Position numbers and translations under genes: made by a program. From Candidatus Latescibacterota bacterium (GTDB lineage: Bacteria > Latescibacterota > UBA2968 > UBA8231), in contig OZ241867.1 of assembly GCA_965203175.1 (NCBI GenBank), positions 320,001 to 384,000 on the forward strand: a DNA stretch of 64,000 nt, written 5' to 3'. Under the pieces are notes generated by a model. It was not told where the DNA came from and searched no databases. It worked only from the letters and a program-made list of their open reading frames with translations. Positions 42,746 to 43,282 of the stretch are shown here, in pieces (the first letter of the stretch is position 1; every line of letters begins with the position of its first letter).

Positions 42746-43282
42746 GTCAGCCACCGACGGCTAAAGCGGTCGGCTTGTCCCTGCCTTTTCCCCCATCCTC
42801 CTAACACGAGCACCGTGCGAATAGGAGAATCACGGATGCGGCTTAACATCGCAGGATGCGACATTGAGCTACTCAGCGGAACTATATGCCTGCTGACACC
42901 AAGCAGCCACTTGGGGGGCGAGACCCCGAGGCATTCGGAACGCACTGTCGGGCTGGCTGAACTACCAGTGCGCACTCGATCCACGCATACAGTGCTATCG
43001 ACGTGTAGTGCCAACAGCCATCCTGAGCGCATGCCCCGAAGGGCTAAACAGTTTTACCCCTCTGGAGGGTGCCCTATCGCCTAAGCTGTTGGCTCGGGCT
43101 CCTATGTGGCCACAATACTGTGGCCAGACTGCTCGTACGCATCCGGGAGCCATTCGGGCGCACACCTAATATAAGCCTCTGCTCGGGGACGCCACAACGC
43201 CTGGTGCGTTGCTCCGCCTGTCGCAGAGACTACACCTTTTTCCTCCCCCGCCTAAAGACGGGGGTCTCCAAAGGAGATTTTT
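42746..43282 (-). mobile_element. Complete 537-bp non-autonomous IS200/IS605 derivative carrying the structured RNA (copy B)
   Basis: TCAT target (rc 43283-43286), left hairpin, and right end CAAGCCGACCGCTTTAGCCGTCGGTGGCTGAC. No ORF. Confidence 0.88.
42815..43163 (-). ncRNA. Second full copy of the putative structured RNA
   Basis: Reverse complement of 36085-36434 with only a few differences. Confidence 0.65.

Follow-up and report, generated by a model that had tools for sequence, protein, structure and literature searches.

Stand-alone mobilised omegaRNAs that travel without an effector or a transposase gene and work in trans are already known (PMC10691335, citing Altae-Tran 2021), and PATEs, in the words of Meers et al., 'often encode omegaRNAs' (bioRxiv 10.1101/2023.03.14.532601). 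Both of these sources place the guide of a TnpB omegaRNA in the flank 3′ of the right end. In the published description of the ISDra2 omegaRNA (PMC10097598), a scaffold of 116 nt comprises stems 1 to 4, a pseudoknot between positions −5 to −3 and the stem-1 loop, a UUUA tetraloop at −20 to −17, and a stem 2 at −35 to −32, its 3′ strand also being given as −36 to −31. IStrons, as summarised in the reports cited here, are fusions of a group I intron to IS605 or IS607 elements (PMC4227781; bioRxiv 10.1101/2023.11.20.567912).

The stretch analysed here, referred to as the window, is 64,000 nucleotides of a Candidatus Latescibacterota bacterium (GenBank assembly GCA_965203175.1, contig OZ241867.1, positions 320,001 to 384,000 of the forward strand); coordinates are those of the window unless a genome and contig are named. 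It contains element B, a complete, ORF-less (without an open reading frame) IS200/IS605-type element of 537 bp, whose left-end-to-right-end strand is the minus strand. An earlier interpretation made from the letters alone, here called the sequence-only reading, had proposed that the RNA encoded by this element matches no known IS605-borne RNA and represents a new class of mobile non-coding RNA. That proposal does not hold. The last ∼190 nt of the cargo have the scaffold of a TnpB omegaRNA and stand-alone omegaRNAs have been published, and the cargo is therefore no new RNA class. We consider it probable that element B is a non-autonomous, PATE-like IS200/IS605 derivative, without tnpA and tnpB and with both transposon ends kept, and that it is a stand-alone, greatly enlarged TnpB-type omegaRNA element, mobilised by TnpA, with TnpB probably supplied in trans.

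Element B lies in opposite orientation inside an ORF-less group II intron, and an uninterrupted paralogous intron in the same genome reads ...CCACAC|ATGAAC... across the insertion site. This empty site sets the borders of the element at exactly 42746 and 43282, directly 3′ of a minus-strand TTCAT; the target was not duplicated. Sixteen of 17 distinct left ends from this and sister genomes, read manually, have CAT at 0–1 nt from their A-rich start. Both ends carry subterminal hairpins with relatives at the ends of gene-bearing elements of this genome: element positions 1–114 match the left ends, and positions 490–537 the right ends, of TnpB and TnpA–TnpB elements. Homology to the left ends at G000:C1:1225870-1225962 and 4688038-4688130 (G000 being the genome of the window) extends to element position ∼97–114. 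As the region 43168–43237 precedes tnpB in the gene-bearing relatives, a promoter or leader probably lies there. The left-end hairpin region also gave a weak Rfam match to HgcC (43226–43314, minus strand; 20 bits, E 0.062), far under the gathering score.

The sequence-only reading had described the element as complete and gene-less, and the empty site, the ends and the lack of codon periodicity all bear this out. Mechanical stop-to-stop frames of 100–118 aa do overlap element B on both strands, and the cargo occupies the place of tnpB, as might be expected of a decayed protein-coding gene, tnpB or another, with structure arising by chance. Several observations make this explanation barely credible. 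The frames are not the same in B and in the related copies D and E described below. Substitutions among these three copies are spread evenly over the three codon phases (e.g. 28/29/31), and the indels, of 1, 2, 6 and 8 nt, do not follow multiples of three. When 13 TnpB frames were compared by tblastn with four copies, nothing scored below E=0.14 except two hits; these two, below E=0.01, are artefacts because the stop-to-stop frames run into the left end. The interior thus holds neither a coding gene nor any similarity to TnpB that would mark a remnant of one.

Folding of the whole element on the left-to-right strand gave −239.8 kcal/mol (z −4.4, with 0 of 100 shuffles as good), as compared with −206.6 kcal/mol (z −2.3) on the opposite strand, and RNAalifold on B, D and E gave 145 pairs, 45 of them compensatory. 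The predicted cargo RNA is ∼420 nt long; its 3′ half has a TnpB omegaRNA (reRNA) scaffold and its 5′ half is an additional conserved domain. A covariance model of the core, R1, was built from positions 346–508 of B, D and E and run with filters off on six resident TnpB loci (18,272 bases). It gave 30 matches at E≤10. The top six fell on the six tnpB 3′ ends, all immediately preceding a right end (21.9–11.8 bits, E 8e-4 to 0.13), and the seventh scored 9.7 bits; all six resident ends are thus homologous to the core by this search, at low scores partly anchored by a right-end motif. A model of the 5′ domain, R3, likewise run unfiltered, found no counterpart in these loci (best E 0.68), and this null result also serves as a negative control for the R1 search. 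The cargo core and the tnpB 3′ ends have in common a GUCA(A/G)C loop hairpin, the linker UAUAGU and the stem-2 strands, the 3′ strand of stem 2 being the right-end-conserved GGC-AGGGAC.

Structure in the core extends as far as the final base of the element, and its pseudoknot joins the stem-1 loop to the bases immediately 5′ of the presumed guide, which would be taken from the 3′ flank. In 11 resident tnpB 3′ ends the pseudoknot is formed by GUCAAC with a terminal GUUGAC, all 66 cells being paired, and the whole structure is 97.4% paired on these sequences compared with 27–50% when slid. In six cargo copies 35 of 36 pseudoknot cells are paired, the one exception being a degenerate copy in genome G044. 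The two strands covary, as GUCAGC/GCUGAC in B, D, E and the copy in G053, GUAAGC/GCUUAC in the copy in G039, and GUCAAC/GUUGAC in the TnpB elements; the G039 form is a double compensatory change. Across the 3′ domain of six cargo sequences, 83.5% of the cells of 57 pairs are paired (34–49% when slid), 25 pairs have changed on both sides (4–11 when slid), and 0 of 500 shuffles were as high. Cells with G.U outnumber those with A.C by 37 to 6, which fixes the RNA strand of this domain as left-to-right and, with the whole-element fold, upholds the strand assigned in the sequence-only reading.

The core of element B is ∼190 nt long, compared with ∼100–120 nt in the resident TnpB elements. Relative to these it has two insertions: its stem-1 loop has gained a pair of hairpins (∼30 nt), and its stem 3, enlarged by ∼62 nt, is branched and 86 nt long as compared with 19–24 nt. 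Both insertions, and the ∼230-nt 5′ domain, are conserved with compensatory changes. A model of the TnpB-type omegaRNA, R2, matched element B over 164 nt (35.9 bits) in the family-wide search. Since R2 did not span the insertions in a local search of the cargo loci, the cargo and TnpB omegaRNA types were compared by separate counts. Elsewhere in the window, R2 also matched (57.6 bits) an isolated remnant, comprising TnpB-type omegaRNA and right end, at 52108–52212 on the plus strand, which has no upstream tnpB and terminates in GGUUGAU, not GGUUGAC.

Pairing in the 5′ domain was assessed on six sequences. The 26 pairs are 85.8% paired, compared with 34–44% when slid; 17 of them have changed on both sides (4–7 when slid), and the covariation score is 0.608 as against ≤0.146. 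Two loops are conserved, CGAUAGCACUG and UAAAAC-N-GUUU. In the family, R3 recovered the same copies only, plus two marginal hits (E 0.003 and 0.023), and Rfam gave no match to the 5′ domain in five copies. No tRNA-like gene was found, and sites complementary to the H5 loop showed no genomic enrichment (58 and 48 hits, ∼53 expected). Its contiguity with the core is the ground for assigning the domain to the minus strand. Inside H1, a 30-nt hairpin at 43105–43134 (element positions 149–178) is present only in copies A and B; it matches 27–30-nt stretches, at 90–96%, in many other genomes of the genus, but is not a repeat family within the genome of the window, where it has 3 hits, A and B among them.

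These properties of the 5′ domain raise the alternative that the true cargo is the domain together with the insertions, which would act without TnpB as a regulator, a protein-binding RNA or a ribozyme, while the omegaRNA-like part is kept mainly through its overlap with the right end. The domain does have the strongest covariation score and conserved loops, it has no counterpart in tnpB loci or, for five copies, in Rfam, and it is kept in G039 and G053, where stem 4 and intact TnpA or TnpB are missing. We nevertheless regard this alternative as quite improbable. Apart from the truncated copy C, the domain never occurs away from the omegaRNA core, and stem 1, stem 2 and the pseudoknot covary although they lie well beyond what TnpA needs of a right end. 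The element ends in GAC and carries no splice-site or ribozyme hallmarks, the Rfam search at E≤10 gave no intron or ribozyme hit, and the H5 loop shows the lack of target enrichment noted above. Of the three options offered in the sequence-only reading, an extended guide scaffold fits, by way of the core related to the resident tnpB 3′ ends; nothing was found in favour of a ribozyme or an intron.

A different possibility, which we hold to be unlikely, is that the ∼300 extra nt form a new functional RNA module added to an omegaRNA core and give the protein-free element abilities beyond those of a plain omegaRNA. Such a module might, for example, allow self-sufficient biogenesis or stability without a tnpB mRNA, capture TnpB in competition with resident guides (a hyperparasite), or substitute as RNA for a protein function. 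If this were true, survival of the whole fold in G039 and G053, which have no intact TnpA or full-length TnpB, would mean a TnpB-independent activity.

The conserved helices could also work as single-stranded DNA, shaping the excised circle or the lagging-strand template for TnpA. IS200/IS605 transposition is described as using single-stranded DNA hairpins (bioRxiv 10.1101/2023.03.14.532601). In the 5′ domain, with 9 G.U cells and 8 A.C cells, an RNA strand is not imposed. The counts for the 3′ domain fit RNA, however, and the architecture copies that of a known RNA, the omegaRNA. We know of no precedent for a TnpA that needs ∼400 nt of internal DNA structure, no search aimed at one having been made, and we consider this explanation very unlikely indeed.

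The pairings named in the sequence-only reading are all present in the sequence where it placed them, and strong covariation was found in both the 3′ and the 5′ domains; the individual helices differ in how widely they are kept. The GCCC-UUCG-GGGC hairpin occurs in copies A and B, and only there. The CGAAU/AUUCG closing pair is not kept in D. A pseudoknot had been proposed between CGGAUGCG, in the H1 loop, and CGCAUCCG, now seen to be part of stem 3. It can form in copies A, B and D, where two changes, each one-sided, leave G.U pairs and none is double, but E and the copy in G039 lack the loop: their H1 is shorter and different, with only 5–6-nt alternatives. The sequence GCAUCCG is conserved in B, D, E and the copies in G039 and G053. 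The CGGAUGCG/CGCAUCCG pseudoknot is thus possible as a subfamily-specific, unproven feature.

The Rfam comparison suggested with the sequence-only reading found no known family in the cargo. At the gathering thresholds, the only match in the whole window was to group II intron domains 5 and 6 (D5/D6); at E≤10 nothing was found inside the cargo in a search of 42500–44000, and at E≤1 nothing relevant in four other copies. This silence is uninformative and says little on omegaRNA membership, because genuine tnpB 3′ ends in the window are also unmatched in Rfam 15. Group II intron identity of the cargo was rejected, as the D5/D6 match (43732–43816, 61.8 bits) is on the plus strand and outside the element.

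The genome of the window, 6.58 Mb in one contig, holds four copies, A to D, two of which (A and C) are truncated. The sequence-only reading had described A as nearly identical to B and C as divergent and partial, and both copies were confirmed, with the qualification that A has lost its right end. In an inverted-repeat scan, the arms 36186–36445/42804–43063 (260 nt) were 100% complementary and the arms 35958–36196/43052–43290 (239 nt) 96%. Copies A and B have 5 differences in the first 479 positions. Beyond position 479 the alignment breaks down, so that A is without the last ∼58 nt including the right-end hairpin; it therefore has no stem-2 3′ strand, stem 4 or pseudoknot 3′ strand, and with these parts missing it is probably immobile and probably gives no working guide RNA. 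The near-identity of A and B, together with the precise insertion of B, argues for recent mobility and spread. Copy C is a 5′ fragment that ends exactly at the ATG of hisD (histidinol dehydrogenase; 31593–32897, minus strand) and points towards it. It could supply a promoter or leader to hisD, and the fit could also be due to chance. Copy D (G000:C1:5935752-5936314) is complete and is 78% identical to B over positions 277–537.

Among the 76 genomes of the family, a BLAST-type DNA search recovered a single further long copy, E in genome G032; its other hits were mostly right or left ends, or a 27–30-nt hairpin. Searching at the level of the order covered these 76 genomes again and gave nothing further. 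R1 added distant copies in G039, G053 and G044, all of the same genus, bringing the total to 5 of the 76 genomes including the one studied here. In a sample of 151 genomes of the phylum, R1 gave only two weak matches, both in another family, one being the 3′ end of a 370-aa TnpB and the other lying at a contig start. A pattern scan of public genome contigs returned 19 loci, of which one is the record of copy E; the remaining 18 were rejected as chance hits, having no nhmmer match to the element profile. Two scans of metagenome contigs and one of viral contigs gave 0 hits, the first metagenome pattern having been confirmed to match B, D, E and the copies in G039 and G053.

Complete copies are found in G000 and G032. 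In G000, the TnpB zinc-ribbon domain gives 13 hits and Y1 TnpA is present in two intact copies; in G032 there are uninterrupted frames of 373–469 aa for six TnpB hits, a further hit with a stop, and 2 intact TnpA. By comparison, G039 has only fragments of TnpB and TnpA, G053 two TnpB frames (189 and 301 aa) and a TnpA fragment, and G044 a TnpB fragment only. The copies in G039 (L061:1501-1645) and G053 (L062:1501-1669), which are different species, have each lost only the right-end hairpin (stem 4) and retain the terminal GUGGCU(G/U)AC and the pseudoknot, while the relative in G044 keeps the right-end hairpin and has only the last ∼90 nt in common. R2 had no match in G039, G053 or G044 at E≤1e-5. 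The distribution, in a comparison of two genomes with three, would fit a dependence on TnpA and TnpB in trans. Two further gene-less elements, L063:1323-1714 in G044 and L019:∼1413–1547 in G050, have the same ends and the stem-3/right-end module with other interiors, L019 containing the motif AGGGACAAGC twice; the genus appears to hold varied PATE-like derivatives.

An inert relic, left by deletion from a TnpB element and now in decay, whose structure reflects past selection or ancestry and whose complete copies are still moved by TnpA, would account for several of these observations: A and C are truncated, the right-end hairpin has gone from the copies in G039 and G053, members of the family are few and limited to a single genus, with none found in the two metagenome scans or the viral scan, and the contigs of one RNA-library run gave no support for transcription. 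It would not account for the pairing. Copies that are only 74–78% identical retain 84–86% of pairs, with 17–25 pairs changed on both sides, and the pseudoknot in G039 carries a double compensatory change; neutral decay would not keep ∼420 nt of such pairing, and A and B indicate recent spread. We therefore judge the relic explanation to be quite unlikely.

If element B is indeed an enlarged omegaRNA element, transcription would begin in the left-end region and continue past the right end, yielding a scaffold of ∼420 nt followed by a guide from the flank. A resident TnpB would bind this RNA in trans and cut the empty site, TTCAT plus flank, left by TnpA excision, so that the copy would be restored by recombination. 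TnpA acting in trans would move the element, which would thus parasitise both proteins of its gene-bearing relatives. The sequence-only reading had already called on Y1 TnpA in trans; element B does require it, and the genome has the two intact genes mentioned above, one of them in the window. Two intact TnpA and the near-identity of A and B together argue for mobility, as far as sequence can indicate it. Six TnpB elements of this genome carry the right-end type of element B. One of these, in the window, has an unexpanded omegaRNA at its 3′ end, and in its TnpB (33770–34951) the D, E and D motifs of RuvC can be recognised on alignment to PDB 8j3r (Cas12f/TnpB-like protein); this element is a candidate supplier of TnpB in trans. 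We can only guess that the extra ∼300 nt help the folding or stability of an RNA no longer derived from a tnpB mRNA, or allow it to compete better for TnpB.

Several observations weigh against this picture. The R1 matches to the tnpB ends are weak (12–22 bits) and partly anchored by the common right-end motif GGCAGGGACAA inside the model, and a local R2 search of the cargo loci did not bridge the insertions, its matches in B, D and E being limited to the final ∼120 nt (26–30 bits). The covariation statistics come from 5–6 informative sequences of a single genus, and are biased upward because the structures tested were derived from the same sequences. Binding by TnpB in trans is uncertain, because ISDra2 TnpB contacts the region of the stem-1 loop, the site of the 30-nt insertion. 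The 5′ domain has no detectable relative, and on its own its two strands are indistinguishable, by fold (z −1.76 and −1.94) as by the G.U and A.C counts. The stem-4-less copies in G039 and G053, in genomes without intact TnpA and with no full-length TnpB frame among the hits, would fit decay but would equally fit a TnpB-independent role. One RNA-library run (sponge metatranscriptome contigs) holds a single 351-nt contig over 42771–42909, at depth 4.6; with 15 differences (∼89% alike) it comes from a relative, and its strand and ends are unreadable. A promoter and terminator scan found no sigma-70-like promoter inside the element on the minus strand. The sole sigma-70-like hexamer pair (42722–42750, minus strand; CTGACA-17-TATCAT, 10/12) lies across the right-end boundary and faces outward.

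Table 1. Coordinates of element B, its predicted RNA parts, related copies and candidate protein partners in the window
Feature	Position	Strand	Basis or remark
Target and presumed target-adjacent motif TTCAT, in the flank outside the element	43283–43287	−	Empty-site paralog; CAT before 16 of 17 related left ends
Left end with subterminal hairpin CCCCCGUCUUUAGGCGGGGG at 43245–43264	43238–43282	−	Common to left ends of the genome's TnpB and TnpA–TnpB elements (nhmmer)
Conserved stem-loop proximal to the left end	43168–43237	−	Left-end homology; compensatory pairs in alifold columns 52–111
Extra 5′ domain, ∼230 nt	42938–43167	−	Covariation on six sequences
H1 hairpin, with loop CGGAUGCG at 43138–43145	43097–43151	−	
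H2, long-range helix	43085–43093 with 43010–43018	−	
H3	within the 5′ domain	−	
H5, with conserved loop CGAUAGCACUG	42982–43005	−	
H6	42940–42975	−	
OmegaRNA-type core, ∼190 nt	42746–42937	−	R1 model, covariation counts, comparison with ISDra2 architecture
Stem 1 of core	42929–42934 with 42886–42891	−	Encloses two inserted hairpins at 42899–42927
Pseudoknot 5′ strand GUCAGC, in stem-1 loop	42892–42897	−	
Stem 2, long-range	42875–42882 with 42777–42785	−	
Expanded stem 3, including CGCAUCCG at 42833–42840	42796–42874	−	
Stem 4, the right-end hairpin with UUUA loop	42754–42773	−	
Pseudoknot 3′ strand GCUGAC, the last six bases of the element	42746–42751	−	
Presumed guide, ∼20 nt of flank 3′ of the right end	42726–42745	−	Position rule of TnpB omegaRNAs, by analogy
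Copy A, inverted twin of B, 99% identical over 479 nt	35966–36445	+	Repeat scan, pairwise alignment
Copy C, 5′ fragment (left end and 5′ domain up to H5 only), ∼270 nt	32897–33167	−	nhmmer; aligns to element positions 3–303
Resident TnpB element, tnpB 33770–34951, same right-end type	33727–35023	−	Pfam PF07282 and PF01385; R1 and R2 hits
Y1 transposase TnpA, 134-aa open frame	10768–11118	+	PF01797, 126 bits

The group II intron that hosts element B (∼42491–43817, plus strand) starts with GUGCGAC at 42491, is ∼790 nt long without B, and carries the D5/D6 match described above; its paralog lies at G000:C1:∼4455100–4456300. A sponge metatranscriptome contig joins 42489 to 43819, representing an intron-less or spliced form in a relative, and contigs of a DNA run join a D5 to 42490 via 36 other letters, without explanation. 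A DDE_5 transposase gene (44394–45152, minus strand) lies just past the host intron, and the region is an insertion hot spot. The resident TnpB element is adjoined by a DNA methylase fragment (N6_N4_Mtase, C-terminal part only) at 34758–35558 on the plus strand. Long inverted duplications (22268–26912/45437–50081, up to 1097 nt at 90%) lie between two giant genes of ∼320–350-nt tandem repeats, one ORF being of 2123 aa.

In comparison with known systems, element B is most like the stand-alone omegaRNAs and PATEs, as far as these are described in the sources cited above. Like them it has no transposase or nuclease gene, keeps both ends and has a scaffold that abuts the right end, and gene-bearing elements with the same ends are present in the same genome, dependence on TnpA and TnpB in trans being presumed. 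It differs in the size of its scaffold (∼420 nt), its extra 5′ domain and its two insertions, although the published supplements may list long examples.

Set against the published description of ISDra2, stems 1, 2 and 4 occur in the same order and positions: a pseudoknot strand lies in the stem-1 loop, stem 2 encloses stem 3, and stem 4 carries the UUUA loop. Counted from the right end of element B, the pseudoknot strand is at −6 to −1, UUUA exactly at −20 to −17, and the stem-2 3′ strand at −40 to −32. Unlike ISDra2, for which the description places the region 5′ of −116 outside the scaffold, element B has a stem-1 loop enlarged by two hairpins, a stem 3 formed by a branched insert of ∼86 nt and a structured 5′ extension of 230 nt, and its scaffold is ∼3.6 times as long.

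The omegaRNAs of IscB and IsrB (HEARO, RF02033) are likewise large (∼200–300 nt) pseudoknotted guide RNAs on IS200/IS605-type elements, with stand-alone copies reported. Identity with this group was rejected: the genome has no match to RF02033 at E≤1 and no hit to RRXRR (PF14239), the latter a weak negative with the control silent in all 14 control genomes. IscB and IsrB RNAs carry the guide at their 5′ side. In element B, unlike these, the scaffold is at the right end, and the guide would be 3′, as for TnpB. IStrons resemble element B in being IS605-family elements with a large structured RNA on the left-to-right strand; elements of the IStron or group I intron type end in a terminal G. Identity with them was also rejected, since element B ends in GAC and no Intron_gpI match was found at E≤10 on B or at E≤1 on four other copies. 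Unlike IStrons as published, its 3′ part is an omegaRNA core.

If our interpretation is right, element B would be a natural case of an omegaRNA with ∼300 nt of additional structure that is either tolerated or put to use. It would bear on how far TnpB guide scaffolds can be remodelled, a matter relevant to the engineering of compact editors, on how gene-less elements compete with gene-bearing relatives for TnpA and TnpB, and on how guide RNAs may gain new domains once they are free of overlap with a coding sequence. Gene-less omegaRNA elements as such are already known; what is unusual in element B, compared with them, is the size of the scaffold and its unexplained, well-covarying 5′ domain.

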